A stretch of 19,314 bases of DNA, taken from IMG/VR virus record IMGVR_UViG_2563366958_000002. One strand, written 5' to 3'. The DNA is from a virus (taxonomy: Duplodnaviria > Heunggongvirae > Uroviricota > Caudoviricetes). The notes beneath the pieces were generated by a model, which was given only the letters and a program-made list of their open reading frames with translations, had not been told where the DNA came from and searched no databases. The translations under genes were made by a program, and so were the position numbers. Numbering within the stretch: position 1 is the first letter of the stretch; the number at the start of each line of letters is the position of its first letter. Below are positions 1,557 through 18,919 of this stretch, in pieces.

Positions 1557-1576
1557 AAACCGCCCGGAGGCGGTTT
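1557..1576 (-). terminator. Terminator-like GC hairpin with U-rich tail between I and J (transcribed strand)
   Basis: Plus strand AAACCGCC-CGGA-GGCGGTTT. On the minus strand the stem is followed by UUUUGUCGUUUAU, then GGAG and the J start. Function inferred from shape only. Confidence 0.4.
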
Positions 1577-1594
1577 CACATGAAATATTTTGCA

Positions 1595-2242
1595 TCAGCG
1601 GCCAATCACCACAACCTGACCACCGTCCCCTTCATCTGCCGTGCTGATCTCCTGAGAAACCACACGAGACCCCACGCGCATTTCACCGTACAGAACAGGC
1701 AGAACATTGCCCTGGGCAACCATGTTATCCAGTGATGAGAAATAGGTGTTCTGCTTACCGTTATCCGTGCTGGTCGCTGTGGGCGTCCGGGCTTTCGGTG
1801 CCAGCATCTGGGCCACACCACCCAGGATCATACTGGCCCCTGCCGCATACATGCCCGATACAGCCGCGGCACCCAGCCAGCCCACAGGGTTCCACCATGC
1901 CACCGCAATCAGCGCCGCCCCCAGCACCACCTGAAACACACCGCCACTTTTAGCTCCCGCCAGACGCGGCACGATGTGGATCACGGCACCATTTGCCAGC
2001 GGCTCATTAAGACGGGCAGATAATTCGGTTTCACCTGCATCACGCCCGGCAATGCGCACCTGATACCAGCCGTCATTCAGTTTCTGACGAAACGCCGGGA
2101 GCTGTGTGGACAACGCCCGGATGGCTTCAGCCCCCGTTTTTACACGAAGGTCGATGCGGCGGCCAAATCGTTGTAAATCCCCGTAAAGGCAGATGCGTGC
2201 CATGCCCGGTGACGCCAGAGGGAGTGTGTGCGTCGCTGCCAT
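1595..2242 (-). CDS. I: Tail tip assembly protein I
   Basis: 215-aa ORF MAATHTLPLASPGMARICLYGDLQRFGRRIDLRVKTGAEAIRAL... ending ...NVLPVLYGEMRVGSRVVSQEISTADEGDGGQVVVIGR; recognised as near-identical to lambda gpI. Lies between K and J as in lambda. Confidence 0.9.
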   Translation of the reverse strand: MAATHTLPLASPGMARICLYGDLQRFGRRIDLRVKTGAEAIRALSTQLPAFRQKLNDGWYQVRIAGRDAGETELSARLNEPLANGAVIHIVPRLAGAKSGGVFQVVLGAALIAVAWWNPVGWLGAAAVSGMYAAGASMILGGVAQMLAPKARTPTATSTDNGKQNTYFSSLDNMVAQGNVLPVLYGEMRVGSRVVSQEISTADEGDGGQVVVIGR

Positions 2243-2883
2243 TTGTCGGTATACCTCTCTCGTTTGCTCAGTTGTTCAGGAATATGGTGCAACAGCTCAC
2301 CGTCGCCGCAGTAAATGGCGGCATGATTCGGCACCGATGAACCAAAACAGCACAGCAGCACATCGCCCGGCTGCGCCGCTGACAACGGCACCTGATACAG
2401 CCCTGTGGCCTCCAGATTATCCAGATAGAGATTCTGGCCGTTACACCACCAGTCATCCTCACGATGAAAGTCCGGCATCTCAATCCCCGCCAGATGATAA
2501 GCATCCCGGAACAGCGTGTAACAGTCCGTCGCCCCGTGCTCAAAGCGCCGCCCGGTAAGATGCGGCACACAGCGGAATTTATGAATCTCACCCCGGCAGA
2601 CCAGCCACCAAGGCAAATCGCTCTGCACCTGCAGCCGCCTGTCAGCCTCACTCAGCCAGGGCAGGCCACCGGGGTGGCTGTGGACCAGCGCCACAATCTC
2701 ACCCTGCATCTCTGCCCGCAGCCAGTCCTCCGGCGACATCCGGAAATACGCCTCCGGCTCACCGGAGATATTCACGCAGGGAAAATATCTTTCCCCTTCC
2801 GGCGTTCTCACCACGAAGCCGCACGACTCCGCTGGCGCACATCGCCGGGCGTGCGCCAGAATCGCTGATTCTGTCTGTGTCAT
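2140..2883 (-). CDS. K: Tail tip assembly protein K
   Basis: The track ORF 2140..2925 contains MTQTESAILAHARRCAPAESCGFVV...HSHPGG..., recognised as lambda gpK. The likely start is the ATG at 2883, four nt after the L stop. The 3' end overlaps the start of I by 103 nt in another frame. Confidence 0.82.
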   Translation of the reverse strand: MTQTESAILAHARRCAPAESCGFVVRTPEGERYFPCVNISGEPEAYFRMSPEDWLRAEMQGEIVALVHSHPGGLPWLSEADRRLQVQSDLPWWLVCRGEIHKFRCVPHLTGRRFEHGATDCYTLFRDAYHLAGIEMPDFHREDDWWCNGQNLYLDNLEATGLYQVPLSAAQPGDVLLCCFGSSVPNHAAIYCGDGELLHHIPEQLSKRERYTDKWQRRTHSLWRHRAWHASAFTGIYNDLAAASTFV

Positions 2884-2887
2884 GGGA

Positions 2888-3586
2888 TTACTGCGAAAGT
2901 TTGTTAATGGAAAGGAAGCCGCCAAAGTTGCCGACGTTATTGCGAAACTTACAGCCGCTCAGGCATTTGCTGCATTTATCCTTCGTGATATCGGACGTCG
3001 GCTGGTCATATTCATCCGCAACCGCCGGACCGTGATAACCGCACTCATCACCGCGATAGGTCCAGGTGCAGGTGTTGGCCAGCATGGTACGTCCCGGAAA
3101 AACAGCACCATCCGTTTCCGTCGGCGTGGACAGTACAAAAGAGGCACTCACCGCGCTCAGTTCGCTGCACTGCTCGATGCGCCAGCGGCTGATCACCTCC
3201 TGCTCTGGATCGGCTTCGCTGTTTCCGTTGACGAAGTTCACCACATCCAGAAAACGGGCGTAAACCTTACGCCTGACCACCGTTCCGCCGACCAGACTCT
3301 GCAGGTCTTCCGCCATCCCGGTGACCATGCCGTGCAGATTAGAGACTTTCAGCGTTGGCCTTGCACTGGCTCCTTTGCCGTTCATCTCAAATCCACTTCC
3401 CTGAATGGGATAGGCCTGATACTGCCGCCCCTGCCAGGTGACTGGTTCACCTTTTTCGTTCTGCTCATTACAGAAGAAATAACGATCTCCGCCGACCTCT
3501 GTCAGATCAATTTCCCAGAGCACGACCAGCGCGGATTGCTCCGTTTTAGTGCACTCATTGAGTGTTTCCTGCTGTATATCCTGCAT
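2888..3586 (-). CDS. L: Tail tip protein L
   Basis: 232-aa ORF MQDIQQETLNECTKTEQSALVVLWEIDLTEVGGDRYFFCNEQNEKGEPVTWQGRQYQAYPIQGSGFEMNG..., recognised as lambda gpL. Its ATG overlaps the stop of M (ATGA). Confidence 0.9.
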   Translation of the reverse strand: MQDIQQETLNECTKTEQSALVVLWEIDLTEVGGDRYFFCNEQNEKGEPVTWQGRQYQAYPIQGSGFEMNGKGASARPTLKVSNLHGMVTGMAEDLQSLVGGTVVRRKVYARFLDVVNFVNGNSEADPEQEVISRWRIEQCSELSAVSASFVLSTPTETDGAVFPGRTMLANTCTWTYRGDECGYHGPAVADEYDQPTSDITKDKCSKCLSGCKFRNNVGNFGGFLSINKLSQ

Positions 3587-3927
3587 CAGTGAGTGACCTC
3601 TTCAAAGGTACAGTTAAAATCGGTATACATGGCATTATCCGAAATGCTCCACTCCCTGCAGACAACCCGGACAGTCCTGTTGTGTTTTGGCGGACGCCAC
3701 AAAAAAGCACGAACCCCGGCATGACGGGATAAAAAACTGTCCAGCGCGGCACGGGAATATTCATCCGTGACACGAAATACCGGTTTAAACGTTTTCAGAT
3801 CTGCATTCAGACCACCAGCCCGTCGCTGTTCATATCCGTCACCGAACTTTACCGTAATAACAGATGGCTTTCGTGTCGTCTCCATCCCCTCGCGGGGGAT
3901 CCAGTTAAAAACTTCAGACTCAGGCAC
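3586..3927 (-). CDS. M: Minor tail protein M
   Basis: Frame of track ORF 3586..3972 (listed with a TTG start). Contains KFGDGYEQRRAGGLNADLKTFKPVF...FLWRPP, resembling lambda gpM (RFGDGYSQR...). Chosen start is the GTG at 3927 with GGAGG 8 nt upstream, overlapping the last codons of H. The ATG at 3885 is an alternative start. Confidence 0.7.
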   Translation of the reverse strand: MPESEVFNWIPREGMETTRKPSVITVKFGDGYEQRRAGGLNADLKTFKPVFRVTDEYSRAALDSFLSRHAGVRAFLWRPPKHNRTVRVVCREWSISDNAMYTDFNCTFEEVTH

Positions 3928-6900
3928 TGCATAATCCTCCGTCCCGACGTGATGACTGCATAATTGACACAACCCTGCTGTCGATCAGATCCACCAGTCC
4001 CCTGGCTGAGCGCGCATCTATCTCGCCATTGCTCCCTTGATTCTGAATGCTGATGTGATACACGGGAGAATAAACAAATCCACCGCCACCATTCACATTT
4101 CCAATGGCCCTGACCCCAAGAGAGCCGTCCGCTGCCCGTGTCAGTGGCATGATTGCTTCAGGCCCGGCCTCGCCCATCAGCCCGGCACCTTTCGCAAAAG
4201 CAAAATACGTCGGGGTATCCACAATGGTGTTACTGTAAGCACTCAGATTTGCCGATGTATAAACACCACCTTTTGCGTTTGCCACTGCACCGGAAAGCCA
4301 GTCGCCGACTGTACCAAGCCATCCTCCGGCACCGGACATGCTTTTGGAAAGTGACTTCAGCCCGTTAACGATGGCAGCGTTCATCAGAATTTTTGAAACT
4401 TCCTGGAGAATTGAACTCCCCCAGTTTCTCCAGTCCACAACATTTCCGGCCAGTGCATCGGAAATATTTGATACCAGCCCGTCCATAGTGGAAACGACAG
4501 CATCTGCCGCCTGCGAAGCATAATCGGTGGCACTGTCTGCCCAGTTCGTCAGTCCCTCCTGGAGTCCGGCATTCCAGTTACTGCGTAAAGCATCAGCCTT
4601 TGCATAATAATCCTGCTGATCGCTGAGACGCTCTTCCAGATATTTTTCATTCAGAGATTTTTCCTGTTTCCACAGGGCTTCTTCAATTTCTCCGGCCTGA
4701 TACTGTCTCAGTAGCTCGTTATTTTTCTGCTCAAACTCCTGCCGGATGCTCCACATTTCCTGAAGTCGTTCACGCATCCGTGAGCCTTCACCATATCCCA
4801 GTAACTGAGCCTCATTTGATGCTCTGACACTGGCATTACTGTCCGCCAGACTGCTCTCATACGCAGCAAGCTGCTCACGAATCTTTTTCTGGTCGATGAG
4901 TGCTGCATTCTGCAAAAGCGTTTTTTTCTGCGCTTCTGACAGGGTTGATAATTCGCCCTGGCTGACCTGATATTTCATCTTAGCCAGTTCAGTATTCTGC
5001 CCTGCCAGTGCTACTTGCTCTTTTTGCTGTTTAATCAGTTGCTTATAAGTATCTTCTATTTTTTCCGCTTCGGTCTTTTTATGCGCTTTGGGTTTATTTG
5101 CCTGGTTATTTCGCCATGCATCCAGTGAGTTATTTATATAATTCAGTCTTGCTGTCTGATACGCCTCTCCCACAAAGCCGAGATCATCCGCAGCATAACC
5201 CAGGCGGGCACGCTCACGAGCTTCCCCCTTCAGGCGGGACAGAGCCAGTTCGCGCTCGCTGTTATTCAGTGCGGTCTGCTGTTTATCATCCAGGGTTGCC
5301 TGTGGTAGCCGTAACGGTACATTCACCAGCCCCTGTCGCTGCTGAAGTAATTCATTACCGAGCCCGAGAAGGCGATTAAACTCGGTATGCTGCCCATTCA
5401 TGATCAACAGGGACTGATACGCTTTGTTTTGTTCCGCTGCCTGTTGACGGATCAACGCCACCCGTCGCTCCTCCAGCCCGGCAAGCACATCCTGAATGGA
5501 TTGCGCTTTGCCCTGCATTTGAGTGAGGCGAGACTGTTCAACTGCCAGTTGATTTGTTGCTTCTGCAAGCCCTTCTGTGACAGTTTTTACCGACGTCATG
5601 TGGTTAATCATAAAACCGTTATCGGTTGTCCAGCCCGGGTTTGCCAGCACATACTGATAGCCAGCAATTTTTTCCTGTAAGGATTTAATCTTACTTTTCT
5701 GCTCGTCAATTAACCTGTTTTGCTCCTTCAGTGCCTGTCGCGTCTTTTCCTCATTATCTGACGCTTCAGGAAGCGACATTGCCGACGTTTTCTGGCGAAT
5801 TTCGTCGATTGTTGCGGCATACTGGCGTGCAGATTCTCTGGCCTGCTCCTGATTCTGATACATCGTGTACCAGGCCGCAGCCCCCAGCATGACGAGTCCC
5901 GGCACACCACCAACCAGCCCCAGCGCGCCACTTAATAAACGACTCCCCACTGACGTAACATTATTCAGCGTTGTCTGTGCCGCTGTTCTGGCCGCAATAT
6001 TACGGGTAAGTGACACCTGGGCAGCTGTCAGCTTCGCTTCTGCTGCGGCCTGCCTTTCGGTACCGCGAGCAGCAACAACCGCCTGTTGCGCACGATAAAC
6101 CGCCGCACGCGCCCTGGCGGTTGCTATCTGTGTCCCCCGAAGTTGCACTTCAGCAAGAGCCACTTCGTTTCTGGCTGCAGTAATTAATCCGGCAGTTGCA
6201 GATCCAGCAGACGACGCCATATTGCCAAAATATCGGGCTACCCCGACGGCAACCAGAGCACCAGCAGCGGTTGCCACGGTGTCAATATTGCCTGCAATAC
6301 CATTCAGCACACCGGAGAGCGTCTTCGTCACTCCGCTTGCCTCGTTCGCACCACCAACCCAGGCCATAAAGGCGTTTTCAACTTTGGTTGCAGAGGATGA
6401 AACCGTATCAGGCATTGCTGCATATTCATCACGCAACGCCCCAAGCTGACTAATCAGTGCAGGAACAACCTTATCGGCGGTCAGTTTTCCGTTATCCGCC
6501 ATGGCCTTCAGATCCTTACGGGCAACCCCCATTCCCGCAGCCAGCGCACGAATAACACGATCGCCGTTCTCATTCACCGAGTTAAACTCTTCACCGCGCA
6601 GCACTCCCTGCGCCAGTGCCTGACTGAACTGCGTGATCACCGAACTGGCTTCTGCTGTACTGGCACCGGATAATTTCAGGCCCGTGGAGATCGCCTCGGT
6701 GACTTTCAGTACCTCCTCAGAACTGTAACCATACTCCCGCATGGAAGCTGCAGAACGGGCAAAAAGGCTGGCGTTATCAGAAAACGCCGTCCCCGTTCTC
6801 TGGCTGATCGCCATTAATTCACGCTGTGATGACTGAAAATCATCACTGGACTGTGAGGCCTGCTTCAGACGGGCATTTACTGAATTCCACTCATCGGCGA

Positions 6901-7165
6901 GAGAAATAAGATGACCGGTAGCAAAAGCCCCGGCAAATGCCCCCGCCATGTTCAGTGCCGAAGATTTAGCTGTATTTATCTGATCCGTCACTTCTGCCAG
7001 TGCACGCCGCATTTCACGGGATGCAGCAGCGGACTGTCGGCCTCCGTTCTGCATGGTACGGTAGTAATCCTGCCCCATACGCGAAGCCCGGGAGATCTCT
7101 GACTGGAATGACCGGGAATTTGCCGAGATTTTAATAATCAGTTCACGTAATGTCGCCACACTCAT
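3920..7165 (-). CDS. H: Tail length tape measure protein
   Basis: 1081-aa ORF with long Ala/Gln-rich coiled-coil content and a C-terminal Gly-rich region, in the canonical position between GT and M. ATG at 7165 preceded by CCGGAGA. Confidence 0.92.
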   Translation of the reverse strand: MSVATLRELIIKISANSRSFQSEISRASRMGQDYYRTMQNGGRQSAAASREMRRALAEVTDQINTAKSSALNMAGAFAGAFATGHLISLADEWNSVNARLKQASQSSDDFQSSQRELMAISQRTGTAFSDNASLFARSAASMREYGYSSEEVLKVTEAISTGLKLSGASTAEASSVITQFSQALAQGVLRGEEFNSVNENGDRVIRALAAGMGVARKDLKAMADNGKLTADKVVPALISQLGALRDEYAAMPDTVSSSATKVENAFMAWVGGANEASGVTKTLSGVLNGIAGNIDTVATAAGALVAVGVARYFGNMASSAGSATAGLITAARNEVALAEVQLRGTQIATARARAAVYRAQQAVVAARGTERQAAAEAKLTAAQVSLTRNIAARTAAQTTLNNVTSVGSRLLSGALGLVGGVPGLVMLGAAAWYTMYQNQEQARESARQYAATIDEIRQKTSAMSLPEASDNEEKTRQALKEQNRLIDEQKSKIKSLQEKIAGYQYVLANPGWTTDNGFMINHMTSVKTVTEGLAEATNQLAVEQSRLTQMQGKAQSIQDVLAGLEERRVALIRQQAAEQNKAYQSLLIMNGQHTEFNRLLGLGNELLQQRQGLVNVPLRLPQATLDDKQQTALNNSERELALSRLKGEARERARLGYAADDLGFVGEAYQTARLNYINNSLDAWRNNQANKPKAHKKTEAEKIEDTYKQLIKQQKEQVALAGQNTELAKMKYQVSQGELSTLSEAQKKTLLQNAALIDQKKIREQLAAYESSLADSNASVRASNEAQLLGYGEGSRMRERLQEMWSIRQEFEQKNNELLRQYQAGEIEEALWKQEKSLNEKYLEERLSDQQDYYAKADALRSNWNAGLQEGLTNWADSATDYASQAADAVVSTMDGLVSNISDALAGNVVDWRNWGSSILQEVSKILMNAAIVNGLKSLSKSMSGAGGWLGTVGDWLSGAVANAKGGVYTSANLSAYSNTIVDTPTYFAFAKGAGLMGEAGPEAIMPLTRAADGSLGVRAIGNVNGGGGFVYSPVYHISIQNQGSNGEIDARSARGLVDLIDSRVVSIMQSSRRDGGLCSA

Positions 7166-7175
7166 TCTCCGGACG

Positions 7176-7197
7176 AAAAAAAACCGCCGAAGCGGTT
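7176..7197 (-). terminator. Terminator-like hairpin with U8 tract between T and H
   Basis: Minus strand AACCGC-UUCG-GCGGUU followed by UUUUUUUU, then the SD and ATG of H. Plus strand shows aaaaaaaaccgccgaagcggtt. Confidence 0.45.
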
Positions 7198-7205
7198 ATG
7201 TTGAC

Positions 7206-7517
7206 TCACTGAGACACTATTAAAAGCGCGTTTTCCAGTCCAGCAAATGGATCTGATACGCCTTCTGTCTGCTCCTTCTCCCACTGAAGAAGCGCATCAT
7301 TCAGTGGCACTTTGACCCCCTGCGCACCGTAAACAGCTGAAACAATCTGGGCAGCCCGGATATCAGCCCGTTCGTCCCCCAGCGGGCTGAACCTGTCAAA
7401 TTCTGCCCACATCATGATTTCTGATGCGGACATTTCCCGGCGTAACTCTGACAATGTGCGCCCCATCCTGAGCGCCAGCATCATCAGAAAACGCATCCCC
7501 GGAAGCGCTACTTTTTT
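7206..7517 (-). CDS. T: T segment of tail assembly chaperone GT; expressed only as a G-T fusion after a -1 frameshift
   Basis: Track ORF 7206..7496 (MRFLMMLALRMGRTLSELRREMSASEIMMWAEFDRF...) is in the -1 frame relative to G. That frame is closed by TAA at 7520..7518 and opens exactly at the slippery site, reading K-K-V-A-L-P-G-M-R-F... Has no convincing SD of its own. Confidence 0.75.
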   Translation of the reverse strand, partial: KKVALPGMRFLMMLALRMGRTLSELRREMSASEIMMWAEFDRFSPLGDERADIRAAQIVSAVYGAQGVKVPLNDALLQWEKEQTEGVSDPFAGLENALLIVSQ

Positions 7518-7879
7518 TTAACCTCGCCGGCATCACTGATTAGTTCCAGAGACTGCCGAAGAAGCCGCGCATGCACCGGGCCATACACGGCAATCACCTG
7601 TTCACGATCATCCTCTGAAAATACAGGTTGCAGTCCGGTATCACACAGAACATCGATGAACAGTTCAACATCCGCTTCCAGATTTCGGCGGGCGCGCTCC
7701 GCAACGGATAACGGTGTCTCATCATCTTTTGCTTTAACGATCTCCTGCCAGCGCAACCAGGCTTCTGCAGAAGGTTCCCGTAATACAACCGTTGCCCCTT
7801 CCCATTCAGGCACATCAACAGTTTTATGGCGAAACCCCGACATCGTTGCCAGTGCCAGATTACGGATATTTTTAGTCAT
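7508..7879 (-). CDS. G: Tail assembly chaperone G
   Basis: Track ORF 7508..7894. Preferred start is the ATG at 7879 (MTKNIRNLALATMSGFRHKTVDVPEWEGATVVLREP...) with GAGGA upstream. Acidic small protein between the major tail and tape measure genes, ending EVKKK at the slippery run. Confidence 0.8.
   Translation of the reverse strand: MTKNIRNLALATMSGFRHKTVDVPEWEGATVVLREPSAEAWLRWQEIVKAKDDETPLSVAERARRNLEADVELFIDVLCDTGLQPVFSEDDREQVIAVYGPVHARLLRQSLELISDAGEVKKK
7511..7517 (-). promoter_or_regulatory. Programmed -1 ribosomal frameshift site (slippery heptamer A AAA AAG) at the end of G
   Basis: mRNA reads GAG GUU AAA AAA AAG UAG. The heptamer A_AAA_AAG is immediately followed by the G stop codon, and the -1 frame continues into T. 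Confidence 0.75.
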
Positions 7880-7893
7880 CACATCTATCCTCA

Positions 7894-8598
7894 TTAACTG
7901 ACGGTAACAGTGCAGGAAGTAGAGGTCACTTTGTTAACCGGGCTTGCTGAATCAGAAATCTCGCAGGTATATGCACCCGCATCACCGGATACTGCCGATG
8001 CCTTACTGAACGTTGCCGCCGTCTGTCCGGAAACAGGAGAACCACCTTTCTTCCAGACATAAGAATAAGGCGGCACACCACCCGCAGCCTCAACCGCCAT
8101 TTCAAGTTTCGCTCCGGAAGCAACCCGCAGCGTGCTTTTTAAATCGACCTTCACTTTCAGCGGCTCTGTCGTCAGCACAGGTTTACCTTTCAGGCGCAGA
8201 GAAAACGTTGCAGCCACAACACCATTGGTTCCTGCAGACCAGGTATGCTGACGCACCTCTGCCATAAAGGTAAATCCGTTGCCTGACGGAAAAATAACTT
8301 TAAAGCCATACGTGGTGTCATTGTCATAGGCACTGCGCAACGCGTTCTGGGCAGCATTGAGGTAAAAGTTGCCTGACATGGAAATCTCTGAAGCAGCCCC
8401 AAGGCCGTTAATATTTTCCTGCTCAACAGAACACAGCGTGGTGACATCAATATCCTGCTTTTGTCCTGCAGTAAACTGCACCTCTTTGATTGTACAGCTT
8501 AGGCCAAGATAGCTGGCAGAATCCAGGGTTTCTGCTGTTACCGGTGCAGACGAAATCATAATTTTCGTCAGTTGCGAACGCTCAAAATTAGAGGACAT
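7894..8598 (-). CDS. V: Major tail protein with C-terminal Ig-like domain
   Basis: Track ORF 7894..8649. Likely start is the ATG at 8598 (MSSNFERSQLTKIMISSAPVTAETLD...) with AGGAGA 5 nt upstream. C-terminus ...GGVPPYSYVWKKGGSPVSGQTAATFSKASAVSGDAGAYTCEI... resembles the Ig-like domain of lambda gpV. Confidence 0.88.
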   Translation of the reverse strand: MSSNFERSQLTKIMISSAPVTAETLDSASYLGLSCTIKEVQFTAGQKQDIDVTTLCSVEQENINGLGAASEISMSGNFYLNAAQNALRSAYDNDTTYGFKVIFPSGNGFTFMAEVRQHTWSAGTNGVVAATFSLRLKGKPVLTTEPLKVKVDLKSTLRVASGAKLEMAVEAAGGVPPYSYVWKKGGSPVSGQTAATFSKASAVSGDAGAYTCEISDSASPVNKVTSTSCTVTVS

Positions 8599-8610
8599 AC
8601 TCGTCTCCTG

Positions 8611-8636
8611 AAAATAAAAAACCCGCCAGCGGCGGG
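8611..8636 (-). terminator. Terminator-like hairpin with U-tract immediately upstream of the major tail gene SD
   Basis: Minus strand CCCGCC-GCU-GGCGGG followed by UUUUUUAUUUU, then CAGGAGA and the ATG of V. Confidence 0.45.
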
Positions 8637-8657
8637 TGGGTAAAATCATTAACGACC

Positions 8658-9002
8658 TCAGGCTATTACCTGAAATTCAAGCGTGGCTCTGCTCAGACGG
8701 GAGTCAGGATCATACCCCTGCGTTTTAGAAATAACGGAGGGTGCCAGTTTCCTTACTGCATCAAGCGCCTGCTCACGAATATCATCTGCGTCATCAGGTA
8801 CTGTCGCCCAGACATCGATCTGCACGGTAATTCTTGATTCAGCCTGACCATCAAGCACATCAGACGCCGTGTCAGACACCACAGAAAACACCAGCCACGG
8901 CGGAGATACCGCAGGCTTTCCCTCCGTCAGTGGGACCACATAAGGATAAACCTGTCCTCCGGCCAGTTGAGACAGCAGGGAATACAGTGTGGCCTCTCTC
9001 AT
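8658..9002 (-). CDS. Tail terminator / tail completion protein (gpU-like position)
   Basis: 114-aa ORF MREATLYSLLSQLAGGQVYPYVVPLTEGKPAVSPPWLVFSVVSD..., coupled to the upstream gene by ATGA overlap. Assigned by position directly upstream of the major tail gene and by size; family not verified. Confidence 0.6.
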   Translation of the reverse strand: MREATLYSLLSQLAGGQVYPYVVPLTEGKPAVSPPWLVFSVVSDTASDVLDGQAESRITVQIDVWATVPDDADDIREQALDAVRKLAPSVISKTQGYDPDSRLSRATLEFQVIA

Positions 9003-9445
9003 TTACTTAAGACCTCATCAATAGCCTGATTCATTCGCTGTATGGCAATCCGTGCTGCCAGTTCCTCTGTCGTATCGAAAGCCGGGCGAATGAATGGATG
9101 CGCGGGCATGTTTATCGTTCCCAGCTCCACAAAGCGCCAGTAAAATGCATTTCGGGGATCGCTGGCTTTCATGCTGTTATCACTGTTTCCGGTTCGCAGG
9201 TTCCGTCCGCGAATGTGGACACCCGAGATAATTTCCCCCCGACGCTTTGAACGCTGAGTGAGAACAACCACATTTTTCTTCAGTTTCCCGGTTCGCTCCG
9301 GCGCACGTTCAACAACTGCATCCCGCATAACTTCAGCACCGGCACGGGTGGCATCGCGCAGAACCTTATTGTTTTCTGCCCTGCTGAGCGTCTCCAGATC
9401 CCGTGCAATATCCGCCAGGCCGGAAAAATCAAGACTGAAATCCAT
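8999..9445 (-). CDS. Neck / tail-component protein (HK97 gp10-like position)
   Basis: Track ORF 8999..9448 (MMDFSLDFSGLADIARDLETLSRAENNKVLRDATRAGAEV...). The ATG at 9445 overlaps the stop of the upstream gene. Assigned by synteny between head-closure and tail-terminator genes. Confidence 0.6.
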   Translation of the reverse strand: MDFSLDFSGLADIARDLETLSRAENNKVLRDATRAGAEVMRDAVVERAPERTGKLKKNVVVLTQRSKRRGEIISGVHIRGRNLRTGNSDNSMKASDPRNAFYWRFVELGTINMPAHPFIRPAFDTTEELAARIAIQRMNQAIDEVLSK

Positions 9446-9783
9446 CACACATTCCCCTTCAGGCTGCAGAGTATTTCAAGCCGGGTAGCGCGTGCATCCG
9501 GTATTGGTGGACCTTCTATACCCAGAATGGCCCCTTTAAATGCACCGGTCAGCACTTTCAGACGTGAAGTCGCTGTCACATCGCGCCGGAATCTCATCCA
9601 GACTCTGACCGTAGCCTGAGCGGTTTCTGCTCCGCCTGAGATTATCTCCCTCCCGCTGATACCCTTAACTTCTGCCCATACGGTAGCTCCCTCCGTCACC
9701 GTCTCCACCGGATGCCCTGACGGAGAGCGGGCGGTGGTGACATTCAGAATAATTACGCGATCACGTAATCTGCCCGCCTGCAT
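9445..9783 (-). CDS. Head closure / head-tail adaptor protein
   Basis: 112-aa ORF MQAGRLRDRVIILNVTTARSPSGHPVETVTEGATVWAEVKGISGREIISGG..., with AGGAGGAG just upstream. Typical size and position, second gene after the capsid; family inferred. Confidence 0.62.
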   Translation of the reverse strand: MQAGRLRDRVIILNVTTARSPSGHPVETVTEGATVWAEVKGISGREIISGGAETAQATVRVWMRFRRDVTATSRLKVLTGAFKGAILGIEGPPIPDARATRLEILCSLKGNV

Positions 9784-9791
9784 GTCTCCTC

Positions 9792-10109
9792 CTACAAAGG
9801 AATAAAACGATAAGGCTCCAGCAGAGAAGAAAAACCAAACGGGACTGGTGCCTTGCTGACATCTGAGGAATTTTCCCGGTTTTCGTACCAGTGCCCGACC
9901 AGCAACATGAGCGCCAGCAAAACATCATCAGCTATAAGCACCCCTTCAGGATCACCTTCCGGCACCGTCTCCTCATAAAGCTTACGGTTGATAAAATTTT
10001 CTGCCTTGCGGCAGGCAGCCCGGAAATACAGCATCAGTAACTCATCATCAGTTGCATCATCTGTATCAATACGGCACTGCGCCCTGAGTTTTTCCACTAT
10101 TGCTGCCAT
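9792..10109 (-). CDS. Head-tail connector protein (gp6-like)
   Basis: Track ORF 9792..10289 trimmed to the ATG at 10109 (MAAIVEKLRAQCRIDTDDATDDELLMLYFRAACRKAENFINRKLYEE...) with CAGGAG 6 nt upstream. The upstream part of the track ORF overlaps the hairpins and the capsid gene end. Confidence 0.6.
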   Translation of the reverse strand: MAAIVEKLRAQCRIDTDDATDDELLMLYFRAACRKAENFINRKLYEETVPEGDPEGVLIADDVLLALMLLVGHWYENRENSSDVSKAPVPFGFSSLLEPYRFIPL

Positions 10110-10120
10110 CAGAAACTCCT

Positions 10121-10164
10121 GCCCGCAACACTGTGCGGGCATAAAAAAACCGCGTCGGCGCGGT
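10121..10164 (-). terminator. Tandem hairpins after the major capsid gene: a terminator-like hairpin with U7, then a second hairpin abutting the connector SD
   Basis: Minus strand ACCGCG-CCGA-CGCGGU UUUUUUU A U GCCCGCA-CAGUGU-UGCGGGC AGGAG ... AUG. Both stems are perfect inverted repeats. Confidence 0.45.
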
Positions 10165-10185
10165 CTGTAACTGAACAACGAGTGG

Positions 10186-11403
10186 TTATTTGCCAGTGAG
10201 CGCCTTGATGGCTGCCACATCTTCCAGCACACAGTCAAAACGATGGAAAGCCAGAAATGCCACCTGATCAAACTCAGCATAACGCTCAACCAGACGTTTC
10301 AGTTCCATATAAGTAACGCGGCGAATGATAAAGCGGTTGAAATCCCCCAGGAAAATGAATTTTTTTCCGGTACCAATCCCGTCAATAGCCTGATCAATAA
10401 CATAAGGGATCCCCAGCACAGTAGCCGGCGTACCGCCTGCAATATCCGGCAGCCATAACGGGCGTTTCTGCCCATCCTCCATCTCTTCAATAGTCTGCAA
10501 TGTGGCATCATTGAATGCCCAGCGGTATTTCGGCCCACCACGATATGCCGGATCAATGGCATGTTTCAGGGCATTCATTTCTTTCCAGGTGAAAGCGGCA
10601 GAGGCTGCAGTCTGGATGGTTCCCGTCACCGACGCTGCCAGCCCTTTTGGCTGTAACGGTGATCCCGTTCCGGTCCCCTGAACCAGATATTTTGCCTCTC
10701 CACGACCAATACGCTGGGCAATACGGTTTGCCAGATAAGATTCAATATCCACCCCACTGTCCTGGAGCAGCTCATTGGACACACGAATTATTTTTGATGA
10801 CAGCTTTTTAGCCCCCAGAATAGCGGTCCCGAACGTCACATCCTGTTCCGTTGCGGCTGTATTTTCCGCCAGCAGTTCGCCCTCTTCAGTCGTGCCATCA
10901 GACGTTGACCAGGTGATATCCTGCCCGGTTGATGTGGTCAGAAGTTGCGCCACACTGGCAATCCCGCCATAAGCCTTCATGGTGTCAATGATTTTGTTAC
11001 GCATCTGCGTGGGCACCGTATATCCGCCCTGAGAATCCGTTGTTACACTCTGAGCCCGCAGTTCACGCATCAGATTACGCTCTTCAGCATTCAGTTCTGC
11101 AAATCCGGCACGCAGAAAACGGTTAAATGCCGCAGCGCGCTTCTCTTCCACCGCCTTTTTCCCGTTCTCCGCCTCATTATTCTGGCGCTCTTCCGGCCCG
11201 GACTCATCCACATATGCCTGATCCTGACGGCGCAACTCTTCTTCACGGGCGATTTGCTCATCCAGCGCATCCAGCTCAGCTTTCGCCCTGTTCCACTCTG
11301 CCCGTTGCTCATCAGTCCATGCGTTATCACCAATTTTTTCATGCAGTGCACGCATATCCTTTGCAATGGTGTTTCGTTTTTGCTTCATCTCATGAAGTTT
11401 CAT
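10186..11403 (-). CDS. Major capsid protein, HK97 fold
   Basis: 405-aa ORF with an N-terminal charged coiled-coil (delta-domain-like, ...EQRAEWNRAKAELDALDEQIAREEELRRQDQ...) followed by a body I recognise as HK97-family capsid protein. Directly downstream of the prohead protease. Confidence 0.88.
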   Translation of the reverse strand: MKLHEMKQKRNTIAKDMRALHEKIGDNAWTDEQRAEWNRAKAELDALDEQIAREEELRRQDQAYVDESGPEERQNNEAENGKKAVEEKRAAAFNRFLRAGFAELNAEERNLMRELRAQSVTTDSQGGYTVPTQMRNKIIDTMKAYGGIASVAQLLTTSTGQDITWSTSDGTTEEGELLAENTAATEQDVTFGTAILGAKKLSSKIIRVSNELLQDSGVDIESYLANRIAQRIGRGEAKYLVQGTGTGSPLQPKGLAASVTGTIQTAASAAFTWKEMNALKHAIDPAYRGGPKYRWAFNDATLQTIEEMEDGQKRPLWLPDIAGGTPATVLGIPYVIDQAIDGIGTGKKFIFLGDFNRFIIRRVTYMELKRLVERYAEFDQVAFLAFHRFDCVLEDVAAIKALTGK

Positions 11404-11417
11404 CGTCAGTAGTATCC

Positions 11418-12017
11418 TTATGCATTAAGAAGGGTCAAAAGACGCTCACGCGCCATTCGTTCGTTAACAGCTTTCTTCAGCGCACCACTCGCCCGCGCTT
11501 CCTGCCAGGCTTTCATTGAGCGGACACCAGAGTCTGCGTCCTGATAGGCCGGATATGTCACCGGGCTGACGTCATACAGACGAGAAATGCGCGTGATTTC
11601 CCGGATAACAATCCCCTCGTCGTCTTCATACCAGCTCTCTCCGTCACGGGCGACACGAAACGCGAACGAGGACTGATTAATGTCACCACGCAACATTGGA
11701 GACAGCACCAGGTCACAAATAGTCGGAGTATCCGGTGCAACAATGTCATAACGTAAACCGCGTTCATCCACCGACAATGACAACGTGCCGGCAGAACTTC
11801 GTCCGAGAATGAAATTAGGATCATGATTAAACAAGCCACGTACATCATCATTCAGTACATCATCAAAAGCCCCCGGCTTGATGATTTCACGAAATCCCCA
11901 CAGAGGTTCTGAACGACTGTTAAATACCGAGCCATACCCCAGAATGTGGGTCGGGGCATTATCATATTGTTCCGCCCGCACCTCCCCGCTGTAACAGCGC
12001 GTTTCACGGTCATTCAT
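11418..12017 (-). CDS. Prohead maturation protease (HK97 family)
   Basis: 199-aa ORF MNDRETRCYSGEVRAEQYDNAPTHILGYGSVFNSRSEPLWGFREIIKPGAFDD... Overlaps the portal gene end by 8 nt; canonical portal-protease-capsid order. Confidence 0.88.
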   Translation of the reverse strand: MNDRETRCYSGEVRAEQYDNAPTHILGYGSVFNSRSEPLWGFREIIKPGAFDDVLNDDVRGLFNHDPNFILGRSSAGTLSLSVDERGLRYDIVAPDTPTICDLVLSPMLRGDINQSSFAFRVARDGESWYEDDEGIVIREITRISRLYDVSPVTYPAYQDADSGVRSMKAWQEARASGALKKAVNERMARERLLTLLNA

Positions 12018-13236
12018 CGTTCTTTTCCTCTTTGCCTTTCGTATCTTTAAAGTTATTCAACGGATTTGCTGCATTTACGCTGACCAGCATTTCATCCAGA
12101 CCGTCAACCGGGTTCATATCCTCAAATGCCCTGGCTTCATTCCGACTCATCCAGCCATCTGTAATGGCAAAGTGATAGAACTGCGCACGCTCCTGTGGGG
12201 TCCCACGGAGCAACCCCGTGAGGTTGAAACGAACGTAATACCCGGCAGCCCGTTCTGTACGGGTAAACAGGCGACGGTTAAGCTCCTGCTCCCAGTTCGC
12301 AACCCAGGGCATCATCGTGTAGCGAACAAACTGAATCGCCTGCTGCGTAATATTCGAAAATGTGGCTTTTTCCAGGTCATTAATCATGTGCGCCGGGACA
12401 TTAAAAATCCCGGCAATCATCGACCGGTTCAGCTTGGTCATATCAATGATCTGAGCATCCACCGGAGAAACTGTCAGAGCGCGGTAATCCAGTTGCGCAG
12501 GCAGCAACATGGTTTTATTTTCCTGGCTGCGAAGCGCTGTCACCGCCCGCTGCCACATATTTTTAAGCCTGCCCCAGCTTTGTTCGTTCAGTTCATTTTT
12601 CACAGAAATAATACCGGCAGGACGGGCATTACCGTTAAAAAAGGCGCTGGTATACTGCTGGCCACTCATTCCCATACCAATGGTTTCAGCATGCTGCATG
12701 ATCGGGCTCAGTCCCATTTTCTGATTGTTTCCCAGCGCCCTGATATGGATCATGTCGTCCGGACTTACCGCAAATGCACCCTCTTCGTTATACACCCCGT
12801 AAGTATGACGCCCACCGGTGTTAAGTAACGTGGTTTCCCATGGCATACAGCATTCAAGGCTGGTAACCTCTCCACGACGATTACGTTTTACCCACGTATA
12901 ACCATTGCCCCACCCCAGCACATGACGCTGCTTCAGTTCCCGCCACTTATAGCTGGTCTGCCAGGCATTAGGTTCATCATGAACGAGCCAGAACAACGGA
13001 TGATCGCGTGCCGGCTGAACATGCTCATTCGTTTTTCGCATCACATGCAGGGGCATCTGAGCCACACTGGATGAAATAACATAAATACAGGCATAGACAG
13101 CAGCCAGCTTCATGGATGTTTCCGGACTGACATACACATCCCGGGCAAAAATATTATCCGTCTCAGCGGCCTCTCCGGTTACCGGAACCGAGGGATTTTC
13201 CAGAGGCTCACTGCGAAACAGAGCATCAAGAAGCAT
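12010..13236 (-). CDS. Portal protein
   Basis: 408-aa ORF immediately downstream of the terminase large subunit; ATG at 13236 with GAGGAG 5 nt upstream. Size and position typical of HK97-type portals. Confidence 0.88.
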   Translation of the reverse strand: MLLDALFRSEPLENPSVPVTGEAAETDNIFARDVYVSPETSMKLAAVYACIYVISSSVAQMPLHVMRKTNEHVQPARDHPLFWLVHDEPNAWQTSYKWRELKQRHVLGWGNGYTWVKRNRRGEVTSLECCMPWETTLLNTGGRHTYGVYNEEGAFAVSPDDMIHIRALGNNQKMGLSPIMQHAETIGMGMSGQQYTSAFFNGNARPAGIISVKNELNEQSWGRLKNMWQRAVTALRSQENKTMLLPAQLDYRALTVSPVDAQIIDMTKLNRSMIAGIFNVPAHMINDLEKATFSNITQQAIQFVRYTMMPWVANWEQELNRRLFTRTERAAGYYVRFNLTGLLRGTPQERAQFYHFAITDGWMSRNEARAFEDMNPVDGLDEMLVSVNAANPLNNFKDTKGKEEKNDE

Positions 13237-13366
13237 GTTTTCTCCTCATGGACACCACCAGTGCATAAAGCAGCAACAAACAGCCCGACAGCATCAGAGA
13301 CGCTGGCAGACCTGCATACAGATAAACGCCAGCAGTGAGCAAACCGAAACCGATCAGCCCGGTCAT
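13226..13366 (-). CDS. Candidate small hydrophobic protein (46 aa) in the gap between terminase large subunit and portal
   Basis: Hand-translated: MTGLIGFGLLTAGVYLYAGLPASLMLSGCFLLLYALVVSMRRKHAS, with two hydrophobic stretches and a basic C-terminus. Starts 17 nt after the TerL stop and overlaps the portal start by 11 nt. No clear SD. Below the ORF-track size cutoff. Confidence 0.3.
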   Translation of the reverse strand: MTGLIGFGLLTAGVYLYAGLPASLMLSGCLLLLYALVVSMRRKHAS

Positions 13367-13383
13367 ATCAGTAATAAGCTGTT

Positions 13384-15141
13384 TCACAGAATTAACAGGT
13401 CCTCATCAGGATCAAGCGTGGACAGAAAGTCATTCACGCCCCCTCCATTTACCAGAAAGCGGCTCATGGCTGTAAAAAGCGCAACAGGGCCGTCGATTTT
13501 GGCTTCCGGCGTGGATTTATTCGGGAAGATGTTGTCGTTTTTGTCCGGTTTTACAGTAACGTTAGACATCATCCAGTTCATGACCGGATGATTGCTGTGA
13601 TGGAAACGCCCGGCATAAACCAGTGATTCCGTTTCCTTCATGGCCTCTGACAGATTGCGGACCGTCTGCGGAACCTCCACCAGCGGTATCCCTTCTTCAG
13701 CCAGTGCCAGGCTGAACTGCATTGCGCTCCACGGGTCAAATCCCAGTTCCCTGAGGTTTTCACCGCCAATCCATTCCAGTAAGTCACTTTTTATCTGAGC
13801 ATGATCGATAACATCACCATCCGTCAGGATGAGCTTATCCATCTCCGCCCACTTCCGGTAAAGTTCTGCCTGCTGCCGCGAGCATCGTTCCAGCCGTCCT
13901 TCCGGAAGCCAGAATTTAAAATCAGCATGAACATGTCCGTTATCGGTTCGCCAGAGTTTTGCCGCCGCACAGATATCAATCTTATGAGCAAGGTCGACGC
14001 CGACCCACATGGGATATGTTTTCAGCTCATGTTGTGGAGCAATGTATTCGCACTTCTCCCACTTAATCATATCCATCCAGGCAGATTCGGCAGTGACCCA
14101 CACATTCATGTGTTTGGTAAAAAAATTCACCCGCGCAGAGACCTGCTCCTTCGCTTTTTTCGCCAGACGACGCAGATCATCCCAGCGTTTACAGATGCCC
14201 AGGCCAGGATTCGCTTTCTGCCAGACCGTTTCATCAAACGGATCATCTCCCTCATCAAGCGTGTAAATGATCGCAAAGTAAGAGTCGTCTTTTACAGCGC
14301 CCTCCACGTCGCTGTTATAGCCTCGCAATACCTTGATGGCGTAATCACGCTGCTCGTAACAAATCCCTTCCTTGTTAAAGCCAGCCGTGGTGATACCAAA
14401 TAACAGGGACTGCAGACGGGCACCGGTTGCCGTTTCCAGAACGTCCCACACGTCGCGGGTTTTATGTGCATGCAGCTCATCAATAATGGCGCAGTGGATG
14501 TTCAGACCGTCCAGGTTGTTTGCATCCGAGGAAAGCGGTTCAAATTTTGATGCGCTCTGCTCCTGGTAAATCGCCAGCTTGTTGAAATCAAACAACCGCC
14601 CGAGTGTCGACCGGGCTTTTCTGACCATATTTTTGGCGTCTTCAAACACGATTCTGGCCTGGTCAAGCGTGGTTGCGGCTGAATACACCTCAGCTCCGCC
14701 TTCACTATCTGCCCCCGTCATATACAGGCCGATACCCGATGACAGTGTTGATTTTGCGTTTTTACGGGCGACTTCGTTGTACGCCGTCCGGAACCGGCGC
14801 ACCATCACCGGACGTCCGCTGCCATCGCTGCGCATGACAACTTCCCCGGTTTCTTCATTGACCAGCGGAATGACAAAACCAAAAATATTAATGAGGATAA
14901 ATACATGCCAGTCCATCAACTCAATGGGCTGGCCTGCCAGTGCCCCTTTTACATGAGGCACAAATTTGTAGAAATTCAGGATGTGCTGCGCACGGGGTTC
15001 ACTGAAATAAATCCCCCGCTTTTCGCCGTACTTCAGATCATCAAGAAAACGCTGGCAGGCCAGGCGGACAAATTCGCCAGCAACAATTTCTCCTGCAACA
15101 ACACGTTCGGCGTAGCGGATCCCGTCAGCCACTTTTGCCAT
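13384..15141 (-). CDS. Terminase large subunit
   Basis: 585-aa ORF MAKVADGIRYAERVVAGEIVAGEFVRLACQRFLDDLKYGEKRGIYF...; size and position typical. Its ATG overlaps the TerS stop (ATGA). Confidence 0.92.
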   Translation of the reverse strand: MAKVADGIRYAERVVAGEIVAGEFVRLACQRFLDDLKYGEKRGIYFSEPRAQHILNFYKFVPHVKGALAGQPIELMDWHVFILINIFGFVIPLVNEETGEVVMRSDGSGRPVMVRRFRTAYNEVARKNAKSTLSSGIGLYMTGADSEGGAEVYSAATTLDQARIVFEDAKNMVRKARSTLGRLFDFNKLAIYQEQSASKFEPLSSDANNLDGLNIHCAIIDELHAHKTRDVWDVLETATGARLQSLLFGITTAGFNKEGICYEQRDYAIKVLRGYNSDVEGAVKDDSYFAIIYTLDEGDDPFDETVWQKANPGLGICKRWDDLRRLAKKAKEQVSARVNFFTKHMNVWVTAESAWMDMIKWEKCEYIAPQHELKTYPMWVGVDLAHKIDICAAAKLWRTDNGHVHADFKFWLPEGRLERCSRQQAELYRKWAEMDKLILTDGDVIDHAQIKSDLLEWIGGENLRELGFDPWSAMQFSLALAEEGIPLVEVPQTVRNLSEAMKETESLVYAGRFHHSNHPVMNWMMSNVTVKPDKNDNIFPNKSTPEAKIDGPVALFTAMSRFLVNGGGVNDFLSTLDPDEDLLIL

Positions 15142-15623
15142 CAGTCTCTCGCTTTTAAAAGCTCTGCCAGCGGATCAACATTATCCGGTCCGGCGGTATT
15201 TACTTTTGCCCGGCTTGCCGGTGACATACCAAATTCTGCAAGCATCGCCCGGATCCGCTTCCAGGCATCCGCTTTCATCGCAGCAGCCGGGTGTGCCTTA
15301 ATCAGCACATCACCGTTCTGCGTTTCCGAGCGGTAGGTGTACCCCTCAACATCGAGTGTTTCGCAGTGATGCCGGTATTCGGTATAGGCTTCCACCAGTA
15401 GCTCAAGCGCACGCGCATCAAGCTGAGAAATGATCCCTTCCGCATTCAGCTCTTCCGCCATTCGCCTGAACCAGTACTTCCCCTGCGCCCCTAAATGTTG
15501 CGGAATTTTAGGGAGACCTTTTTCATCCTTTTTAGCGGTTTTTTTGAGGTCTTTAACTGGCCGCTTTGAGGGGTTGCCTCGTATCAAATGCAGGCGTGGC
15601 GGGATTTTCGGGTGTCCAGACAT
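15141..15623 (-). CDS. Terminase small subunit (P27-family-like)
   Basis: 160-aa ORF MSGHPKIPPRLHLIRGNPSKRPVKDLKKTAKKDEKGLPKIPQHLGAQGKYWFRRMAEELNAEGIISQLD... Directly upstream of and translationally coupled to the large subunit. Confidence 0.8.
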   Translation of the reverse strand: MSGHPKIPPRLHLIRGNPSKRPVKDLKKTAKKDEKGLPKIPQHLGAQGKYWFRRMAEELNAEGIISQLDARALELLVEAYTEYRHHCETLDVEGYTYRSETQNGDVLIKAHPAAAMKADAWKRIRAMLAEFGMSPASRAKVNTAGPDNVDPLAELLKARD

Positions 15624-15770: not shown

Positions 15771-16121
15771 TCAATTGATGCGTTCGCGCGCTGTTTTTGC
15801 TTTATGACAGGGCCAGCACAGACTCTGCAGGTTACTGTCTGCATCTGTGCCACCATGAGCTTTCGGAATGATGTGGTCCACAGTTCTGGCTTCAACGGCT
15901 CTCCCATTGCGCAGGCAGTTCTGACACAGATGATTATCACGCTTCAGTATGCGCGCACGTATGGCATCCCATTTCGAACCATAGCCACGCTGGTGGCGAC
16001 TCAGTCCTCGTTGATGCTGTACCCATCCTTCGCCACGATGTTTATCGCAGTAACCAGAACTGTCTGTGGTTGTTCCTGCACATCCACGCTTACGGCAGGC
16101 ACGTGGGATTAGTGATGGCAT
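15771..16121 (-). CDS. HNH endonuclease (terminase-associated)
   Basis: 116-aa ORF with Cys-rich N-terminus (CRKRGCAG...CDKH) and HNH core ...CQNCLRNGRAVEARTVDHIIPKAHGGTDADSNLQSLCWPCHKAKT. ATG at 16121 with GAGG upstream. Confidence 0.85.
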   Translation of the reverse strand: MPSLIPRACRKRGCAGTTTDSSGYCDKHRGEGWVQHQRGLSRHQRGYGSKWDAIRARILKRDNHLCQNCLRNGRAVEARTVDHIIPKAHGGTDADSNLQSLCWPCHKAKTARERIN

Positions 16122-16163: not shown

Positions 16164-16628
16164 CTACTTAATGCACTGAGTGCGGATATACTCCTGTGCC
16201 CCTTCCAGTTGCATCTGCATCGTCATCAGCCGCTCTCTGAGGGTGAAATAATCCCGTTCAGCGGTGTCTTCCAGTCGGGGGCTGGTTGCATTATCCACGC
16301 CGGAGGCGGTGGTGGCTTCACGCACTGACTGACAGACTGCTTTGATGTGCAACCGACGACGACCAGCGGCAACATCAGCGCGCAGAGTTTCATTTTCAGC
16401 TTTCGCATTGGCTAATTCTCTCGAGTACTTTGCATCGAGCGCAGCAACATCACGCTGACGCTGCTGCATGTCAGCGATGGTGGCGATCGCCAGCTTCAGC
16501 TCACTGACTTTTTTATCACGCTGTTCTTTGTAGGCGATGGCGTTATCACGGTAATGATTGACCGCCCACGACAGGCAGACGATGATGCAGATAACCAGAG
16601 CATAAATAATCGCGGCGACTCTGCTCAC
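16164..16628 (-). CDS. Rz: Spanin inner-membrane subunit Rz (i-spanin)
   Basis: Track ORF 16164..16643. Translation ...[38 protein letters not shown]...[33 protein letters not shown]...DYFTLRERL... is recognised as very close to lambda Rz. Likely start is the GTG at 16628 overlapping the endolysin stop (GTGA), with GGGGGA upstream. Confidence 0.88.
16226..16408 (-). CDS. Rz1: Spanin outer-membrane lipoprotein subunit Rz1 (o-spanin), embedded within Rz in another frame
   Basis: 60-aa [63 protein letters not shown] with a lipobox (VVGC), proline-rich stretch, and near-identity to lambda Rz1 from memory. Entirely inside Rz. Confidence 0.88.
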
Positions 16629-17158: not shown

Positions 17159-17221
17159 GGATATTTATCAGGATTTATCGGTTTCTGCCCACGGACAGGT
17201 TTATCTGTTCCGGTCAGTGAC

Positions 17222-17572: not shown

Positions 17573-17576
17573 TGAA

Positions 17577-18884: not shown

Positions 18885-18919
18885 GGAGTTTACTCACATC
18901 TGACAAAATCAATATAAAC

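Follow-up and report, generated by a model that had tools for sequence, protein, structure and literature searches.

Putative intrinsic terminators in the intergenic spacers of the late operon of an HK97-like lambdoid Escherichia coli prophage

The late genes of phage lambda are transcribed as one 27-kb Q-dependent mRNA (bioRxiv 10.1101/2023.05.14.540688). Processive antitermination lets polymerase pass several terminators whose stems, at about 7-11 bp, are of ordinary length; for the pLS20 conAn operon, internal terminators together with antitermination were proposed to limit spurious transcription and to give differential expression (PMC10325885). The record of phage HK97 (NC_002167) annotates 'terminator, putative' at the portal/protease, major capsid protein (MCP)/gp6, gp11/V, V/G, gp15/H and K/I junctions and before J. 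Morons have been described as genes with their own promoter and terminator, expressed from the repressed prophage, and the first one described, HK97 gene 15, sits at the T/H junction, between the tail chaperone and tape measure genes (PMC3594210). Here we analysed a stretch of 19,314 nt from the IMG/VR record IMGVR_UViG_2563366958_000002 (hereafter the window), in which four intergenic spacers of the structural operon carry terminator-like hairpins: MCP/connector, tail completion/major tail V (Tc/V), T/H and I/J.

The open reading frame (ORF) listing, Pfam matches and megablast identify the window as late-region DNA of an HK97-like lambdoid E. coli prophage, with transcription on the minus strand; the gene order was checked by Pfam and by the annotation of relatives. 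The nearest records in megablast are the E. coli phages vB_EcoS-640R1 (97%) and PhiR49_2 (99%). In vB_EcoS-640R1 (ON470612, 97% identical), the Q gene and then a tRNA lie directly upstream of the region that matches the window. We propose, with moderate confidence, that the four U-tailed hairpins are intrinsic (Rho-independent) terminators in the spacers of a Q-antiterminated late operon, where they would act as conditional stops. Term-seq data exist for the prophages of enterohaemorrhagic E. coli (EHEC) Sakai (GEO GSE143631; PMC7547250), whose Sp prophages have a tail module about 76% identical to that of the window; our literature search found no papers with mapped 3′ ends inside a lambdoid structural operon. 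The prophage small RNAs (sRNAs) of Tree et al. 2014 were considered as well and set aside, as they concern the PR′-proximal region and not these spacers.

Terminator-like hairpins in the late-operon spacers

From terS to J, a hairpin is found in 4/4 true non-coding spacers of at least 40 nt, since at the remaining junctions the genes overlap or are at most 14 nt apart (junction table) and a 53-aa ORF fills the gap of 147 nt between terL and portal. All four sites lie in untranslated spacers in the sense orientation expected of intrinsic terminators, with a Shine-Dalgarno (SD) sequence and a start codon within 13-22 nt after each hairpin (Table 1). This agrees with a first-pass annotation of the window, which had placed hairpins in these four spacers on the transcribed strand, next to the signals of the following gene, and had described the genes as otherwise tightly packed or overlapping. 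The four U-tailed hairpins, of which the one in the MCP/connector spacer is called hp1, have 6-8 perfect pairs, loops of 3-4 nt and free energies (dG) of -8.0 to -13.6 kcal/mol. Their stems and loops are comparable to the average E. coli terminator, for which a 7-8 bp stem and a 3-4 nt loop are quoted (PMC10325885).

The U-tract is uninterrupted at T/H (T8) and hp1 (T7) and takes the form T6AT4 at Tc/V. At I/J the tail is UUUUGUCGUUUAU, with 4 U before the interruption, 3 of these paired, and it extends to about position 1545. The I/J hairpin has a dG of about -13 to -13.6 kcal/mol (z = -3.7 vs. shuffles, compared with z = -3.5 for hp1), and with its interrupted U-tract it has the weakest terminator shape among the sites. 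The GC-rich hairpin followed by a U-tract that had been annotated for every spacer is therefore present at T/H, Tc/V and hp1 and imperfect at I/J. The T/H spacer, 40 nt long, consists of hairpin and SD only. The MCP/connector spacer contains a second hairpin (hp2; z = -5.4), which ends one base before the GGAG of the connector SD, in line with the earlier remark that it abuts this signal.

Scanning of the window revealed 15 terminator-like sites on the minus strand vs. 1 on the plus strand. Between terS and J, 4 of the 12 matches fall within the 235 nt of spacers, corresponding to an approximately 33-fold density excess over coding sequence (binomial P = 2.3e-5), and the 8 matches in coding regions are weak ones, with tails of 5-6 T. 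A looser scan gave 28 sites vs. 18 +/- 4.7 in shuffles. In their build the hairpins resemble Rho-independent terminators, and they are strand-specific. The four U-tailed hairpins obtained +11 to +38 in a d'Aubenton-Carafa-style score, within the range of the trp attenuator and lambda tR2 controls, and hp2 a negative value, which is not terminator-like; the score is rough and indicative only.

Whole-spacer folds gave no convincing attenuator-type competing structures. The two hairpins hp1 and hp2 form side by side, and the sole alternative using a terminator arm is a marginal one of equal energy at T/H. A leader peptide is likewise absent. Searching the whole window against Rfam (E <= 1) gave the sRNA STnc100, a tRNA and one chance match, and nothing at the spacers; REP-like (repetitive extragenic palindromic) elements and known sRNA families were ruled out there on this result.

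The first-pass annotation had also seen a shared core in three of the stems. The pattern CCGC...GCGGKUUU does match exactly the four sites, but the statistic is circular, as the pattern was derived from the four sites themselves. The loops and flanks of these sites are unrelated to each other, orthologous junctions in relatives carry unrelated stems (e.g. AGCCACC, AGCUGC, CCCGGC), and CCGC/GCGG-type stems are also common among the other terminators inspected, including several unrelated ones of HK97. The core as a repeat family of common descent was rejected, given the circular statistic and the other stems at orthologous sites. We read the similarity as the usual enterobacterial terminator composition plus orthology.

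Conservation of the hairpins and exchange of neighbouring modules

For the MCP/connector spacer we compared 39 distinct variants from IMG/VR contigs and prophages of 24 GTDB species, with MCP identities of 65-79% and hosts including Citrobacter, Kosakonia, Kluyvera, Buttiauxella, Edwardsiella, Lonsdalea, Proteus, Providencia, Mixta, Rouxiella and Symbiopectobacterium. Across these variants no alignment is possible in the 5′ third of the spacer, yet hp1 (CCGC-loop-GCGG), the T7-8 run and hp2 directly before the SD are kept in 39/39. The CCGC/GCGG core of hp1 and the T-run are invariant, and the loops vary freely (CCGA, GAAA, GUAA, GAUA, GUGA, GAGA, UUAAUU, UUAAC, UUAG, UUCG). In hp2, compensatory double changes were seen at 3 pairs (AU/GC, CG/UA, CG/UA), and the tandem of hp1 and hp2 is kept across about 20 genera.

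A scan of genome contigs gave 24 loci, most of which have different tail modules, so that the tail-spacer comparisons were limited to about 11 lineages. A hairpin with a T-run just upstream of the V SD is present in 11/11 of them, making Tc/V the most widely conserved position. In some lineages the stem is wholly replaced (CCCGGC/GCCGGG, AGCCACC/GGUGGUU, AGCUGC/GCAGCU, GACCGC/GCGGUC), and 3 pairs of this hairpin show double changes; the pair counts for both hp2 and Tc/V are conservative, because MAFFT misaligns variable loops. At I/J, the 31 spacer variants differ at 1/16 stem positions vs. 4/4 loop and 15/40 other positions (P = 0.011), and the sole variable stem position is a C-to-U change that retains a G.U pair.

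With stems kept, loops and flanks varying and changes compensated, these alignments indicate that the hairpins are maintained by selection. At MCP/connector and Tc/V the hairpins persist with compensatory changes next to spacer sequence that has diverged beyond recognition, which points to purifying selection on structure. The comparison with homologous spacers, by which the first-pass annotation had proposed to judge its hairpins, came out in their favour. Taken together, the short GC stem, the stable tetra- or triloop, the U-run, the sense-only placing and the invariance of the T-run speak for genuine intrinsic terminators that would act on ordinary RNA polymerase.

In most relatives, the U-tract of hp1 and hp2 are predicted to extend into a helix covering the GGAG; in the window this pairing is broken. 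As the extension consists of U-purine pairs only, it gives no covariation evidence, and SD sequestration by the hp1 U-tract was not accepted and is kept only as a lead.

Judged by the gene content of relatives (L numbers denote genomes compared here), morons are classically inserted in the T/H and I/J spacers, with the hairpin there serving as the putative moron terminator in relatives, a context absent from the first-pass annotation. A low-GC gene of 280-450 nt lies between T and the hairpin in L002 (HK97), L009, L016, L028, L073, L075 and L104; in L009 and L028, a T/H hairpin identical to that of the window follows directly after a 400-nt moron gene. The Stx1 phage L110 has the orthologous hairpin and no moron, the window likewise has the hairpin alone, and lambda, L095 and L098 have neither at T/H. 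At I/J, morons and a terminator are present in HK97, and a 246-nt insert and a terminator in L110. This insert (L110 16063-16308) contains an A-run and a hairpin oriented as an antisense-strand terminator, with a sense terminator just before J, and could be a small antisense gene or RNA. The spacers of the window, 40-76 nt long and free of ORFs, contain no moron gene, and no moron was seen at MCP/connector or Tc/V in any relative examined.

Some of the hairpins coincide with boundaries of exchange. In L009 an indel boundary falls exactly on the 5′ base of the T/H hairpin: a moron and an alternative C-terminus of T replace the sequence up to this base (L009 ~8195-8640 vs. window 7166-7230). In L039 identity on the capsid side amounts to 99.7% through hp2 and drops to about 45% at the SD, a mosaic breakpoint located exactly at the 3′ edge of hp2 (L039 ~5215-5300 vs. 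window 10107-10141). Near-identical units of GC hairpin, T6-8, AUGGGUGAAA(N) and AUG were found at different junctions in different phages (Table 1), which suggests that such units may be portable terminator-plus-SD joints.

Possible roles of the hairpins

We consider the conditional stop the most likely role of the hairpins, because the operon is of the Q-antiterminated kind and processive antitermination bypasses ordinary stems. RNA polymerase without the Q modification, coming from spurious starts in the lysogen or, in relatives, from moron promoters at T/H and I/J, would stop at the hairpins, so that the structural genes would stay silent and insulated. During lytic growth, Q-modified polymerase would read through, stems of 6-8 bp being of the ordinary length that is bypassed. 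The hairpins may have secondary roles in mRNA stability or translation: in the transcript they are probably barriers to 3′ exonucleases as well, and hp2, which is placed next to the SD, probably reduces translation initiation at the low-copy connector block.

Several points weigh against conditional stops. Terminator function is deduced from form and conservation only, and Q lies outside the window, its presence being taken over from the close relative ON470612. I/J, with its interrupted U-tract, and T/H, with its short stem and dG of -8, may both terminate weakly. Deep in a structural operon, selection for insulation in the lysogen would seem to be no more than weak, yet the strongest conservation is found at MCP/connector and Tc/V, where no relative showed a moron; this points to a role in lytic growth.

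At precisely these two sites the data fit better with a post-transcriptional function, which we regard as possible and less probable for the set as a whole. Q-polymerase would then ignore the hairpins, and these would serve as exonuclease barriers or 5′-end structures after endonucleolytic cleavage in the adjacent U-rich tracts, giving long-lived mRNA segments for the most abundant proteins, with hp2 throttling connector translation. Hairpins indeed bracket V-G-T in the window (8621-8637 and 7182-7197), E in lambda via D/E and E/FI (L003 6077-6137, 7158-7204), and gp4-gp5 and V in HK97 (L002 3309-3335, 5192-5213, 6692-6719, 7443-7462), although this bracketing is anecdotal and comes from few genomes. 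Boundaries of this kind would explain the conserved hairpin upstream of V, which attenuation cannot, and they would suit hp2, which lacks a U-tail, covaries and places its 3′ arm within the ribosome-binding region, at 11-14 nt from the start codon. The possible extension of the U-tract and hp2 over the GGAG in most relatives would fit too, but it is made of U-purine pairs and broken in the window. Moreover, an exonuclease barrier needs no U-tract, yet T7-8 is invariant at hp1 in the 39 variants. The first-pass annotation had suggested intra-operon attenuation or 3′ stabilisation, and it had located the hairpins exactly after the most abundant products. In an attenuation model the hairpins would be partial terminators even for Q-modified polymerase, and the resulting step-down after abundant products would set structural stoichiometry. 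The stated location fails at 2/4 sites. The hairpin at 8621-8637 lies upstream and not downstream of the major tail gene (V and G overlap in an ATGA, so that no hairpin follows V), and the I/J hairpin follows the low-copy assembly protein I. What remains is the MCP/connector site, where a terminator plus a covarying SD hairpin fits a step-down from the ~400-copy capsid to the ~12-copy connector proteins, and T/H, which separates V-G-T from the low-copy tape measure. T7 is also known to have a terminator behind its major capsid gene (Tphi after gene 10). Against this stands the most widely conserved hairpin of all, directly upstream of V, where a step-down would go in the wrong direction, reducing the very tail protein that is required in the most copies. 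Q loading of the polymerase, furthermore, keeps hairpins from forming in the RNA exit channel. For pLS20, internal terminators under antitermination have been proposed to give differential expression, but the stems of the window are short and ordinary, of the kind that antitermination bypasses (PMC10325885). On balance we find attenuation doubtful, even if it fits MCP/connector and T/H.

The T/H and I/J sites allow a further explanation, that the hairpins are terminators left behind by lost morons or conserved linkers for module exchange, with little present regulatory role. Both are moron sites in HK97 and other relatives, the boundaries in L009 and L039 lie at the 5′ base of a hairpin and at the 3′ edge of hp2, respectively, and the hairpin-T6-8-AUGGGUGAAA-AUG units recur at different junctions. 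The explanation does not extend beyond these two sites, as no relative shows a moron at MCP/connector or Tc/V and the hairpins persist there with compensatory changes, and even at I/J the stem is significantly less variable than loop and flanks; we hold it to be unlikely. Very improbable, finally, are chance palindromes, repeats of the REP or BIME (bacterial interspersed mosaic element) type, binding sites for proteins on dsDNA, or terminators of small RNAs encoded in the spacers. The short stems and their common CCGC/GCGG would agree with such origins, but the strong strand and location bias, the asymmetric T-runs and the varying loop lengths with pairing kept would not, no Rfam family was found at any spacer (E <= 1), and spacers of 40-76 nt are too short to hold both a promoter and an sRNA.

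More speculatively, and with rather low confidence, the MCP/connector spacer may be an undescribed conserved bipartite RNA element, ordered as terminator hairpin, U7-8, covarying second hairpin and SD, and present in about 20 genera of Enterobacterales. The late-operon hairpins would then bracket abundant genes, carve out stable mRNA segments, throttle connector translation and double as joints for the exchange of modules and morons.

If the hairpins work as conditional stops, they would show by what means the 15-kb structural operon of a temperate phage stays silent in the absence of Q and how a late operon tolerates independently transcribed morons, and they might contribute to the approximately 30-fold differences in protein output from one transcript. 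Their practical value is modest, as a clean conserved set of sites for Term-seq on lambdoid prophages. They also correct the earlier picture in that the hairpin with the best conservation precedes the major tail gene and does not follow it.

Gene context and comparison with known systems

The positions of the hairpins, their signals and the genes of the window are collected in Table 1. An A8G slippery run at 7508-7521 (minus strand), directly before the stop of G, fits the conserved -1 frameshift that yields a G-T tail chaperone fusion. The ORF in the terL/portal gap (13226-13387, minus strand) encodes a hydrophobic product without a Pfam match; it overlaps terL and portal, and the annotation of a relative lists it as hypothetical.

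Upstream of the structural genes the window has three more sense-strand terminators, one of which ends STnc100. This sRNA (18910-19099, minus strand; Rfam, 133.6 bits) finishes in a 9-bp terminator (hairpin 18919-18940), and the tRNA (19178-19251, minus strand) has a terminator of its own (hairpin 19143-19160). The tRNA/STnc100 region resembles a PR′-proximal short-RNA/tR′ region, analogous to lambda 6S RNA or StxS. A 111-aa ORF lies on the opposite strand within the late region (18549-18884, plus strand); it has no Pfam match, is annotated as the IraM anti-adapter in ON470612 and is a candidate reverse-oriented moron. A 12-bp hairpin with a U-rich tail (17831-17859, minus strand) stands just upstream of the holin start annotated in relatives and falls within a longer GTG-initiated ORF (17577-17897).

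Table 1. Hairpins, translation signals and genes of the window, with recurring units in relatives
Feature	Position	Strand	Details
I/J hairpin	1557-1576	minus	stem AAACCGCC/GGCGGTTT, read as AAACCGCC-UCCG-GGCGGUUU, loop UCCG
J signals	SD 1543-1546; start 1532-1534	minus	SD GGAG, start ATG
T/H hairpin	7182-7197	minus	AACCGC-UUCG-GCGGUU, dG -8.0, T-run of 8 at 7176-7183
H signals	SD 7167-7170; start 7165	minus	SD GGAG
Tc/V hairpin	8621-8637	minus	ACCCGCC-GCU-GGCGGGU, dG -12.0, tail U6AU4 at 8611-8621
V signals	SD 8604-8609; start 8598	minus	strong SD AGGAGA
MCP/connector hp1	10148-10165	minus	GACCGCG-CCGA-CGCGGUU, dG ~-10.7, T-run of 7 at 10143-10149
MCP/connector hp2	10120-10141	minus	UGCCCGCA-CAGUGU-UGCGGGCA, no U-tail, dG -17.7 to -18.5
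Connector signals	SD 10116-10119; start 10107-10109	minus	SD GGAG, start ATG
tRNA and sRNA region	18.9-19.3 kb	minus	
Lysis genes	16164-17897	minus	
HNH	15771-16121	minus	
terS	15141-15623	minus	
terL	13384-15141	minus	
Portal	12010-13236	minus	
Protease	11418-12017	minus	
MCP	10186-11403	minus	
Ad1 connector	9792-10109	minus	
Head closure	9445-9783	minus	
gp10-like	8999-9448	minus	
Tail completion (Tc)	8658-9002	minus	
Major tail V	7894-8598	minus	
G	7508-7894	minus	
T	7206-7496	minus	reached via frameshift at A8G run
Tape measure H	3920-7165	minus	
M, L, K	between H and I	minus	
I	1595-2242	minus	
J	1-1534	minus	
Recurring hairpin-T6-8-AUGGGUGAAA-AUG units	L002 8398-8437, 13799-13836; L111 13524-13575; L098 I/J spacer; L016 T/H spacer		

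HK97 is one of the closest known systems. It shares with the window the junctions MCP/Ad1 connector, tail terminator/major tail, (moron)/tape measure and the one before J, and the same anatomy of GC-rich stem, 3-4 nt loop, T-run and then SD and ATG. Its gp11/V hairpin (6692-6719) is a clear ortholog, AACCCGCC-AGAU-GGCGGGUU vs. ACCCGCC-GCU-GGCGGGU in the window. The differences are another capsid lineage (23% identity), in which gp5 is followed by just one hairpin and hp2 is absent, additional hairpins at portal/protease, V/G and K/I, and morons at T/H and I/J, which the window is without. In lambda, the I/J stem GAAACCGCC...GGCGGUUUU (15463-15482) is identical to that of the window and has the same position, 22 nt before the J start; the loop is UGCG vs. 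UCCG. Lambda has further terminator-shaped hairpins at D/E, E/FI, J/lom and lom/stf, and it lacks T/H and U/V spacer hairpins because those genes abut or overlap. No annotation of its late-operon hairpins was found in the two lambda records inspected. The same hairpin pattern was seen in Cronobacter phage ENT39118 and in an Stx1 phage.

In relation to moron terminators, the T/H hairpin of the window occupies the position of the terminator of the HK97 gene 15 moron, but without a moron gene or promoter. Like the operons of lambda N/Q and pLS20, the window shows several ordinary-length intrinsic terminators in a long operon of a kind preceded by an antiterminator gene; in contrast to them, its antiterminator and loading site lie outside the window. 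The short intergenic stem-loop terminators of the PeSL (promoter early stem-loop) cassettes of T4-type phages similarly stand at boundaries of insertion, deletion and replacement, but each PeSL includes a strong early promoter, and these cassettes occur in many repeats within hyperplastic regions (PMC2839356), whereas the window has no promoter and four or five sites in a conserved structural operon.

A stem-loop directly after the most abundant structural gene, placed so as to raise its relative expression, recalls two further systems. The T7 Tphi terminator follows the major capsid gene 10, has a long stem and serves a polymerase of its own without antitermination. The malE-malF REP is a hairpin acting as 3′ stabiliser in a polycistronic mRNA; the defined REP consensus is not present at the hairpins of the window. 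The idea of terminators in such late operons has reportedly been in the literature since the genome analysis of HK97 and HK022. By sequence comparison the feature is ordinary and already known, as orthologous sites are annotated in HK97 and the I/J hairpin is present in lambda, and what is mildly new is only the tandem hairpin that follows this capsid lineage, with its deep conservation and covariation.

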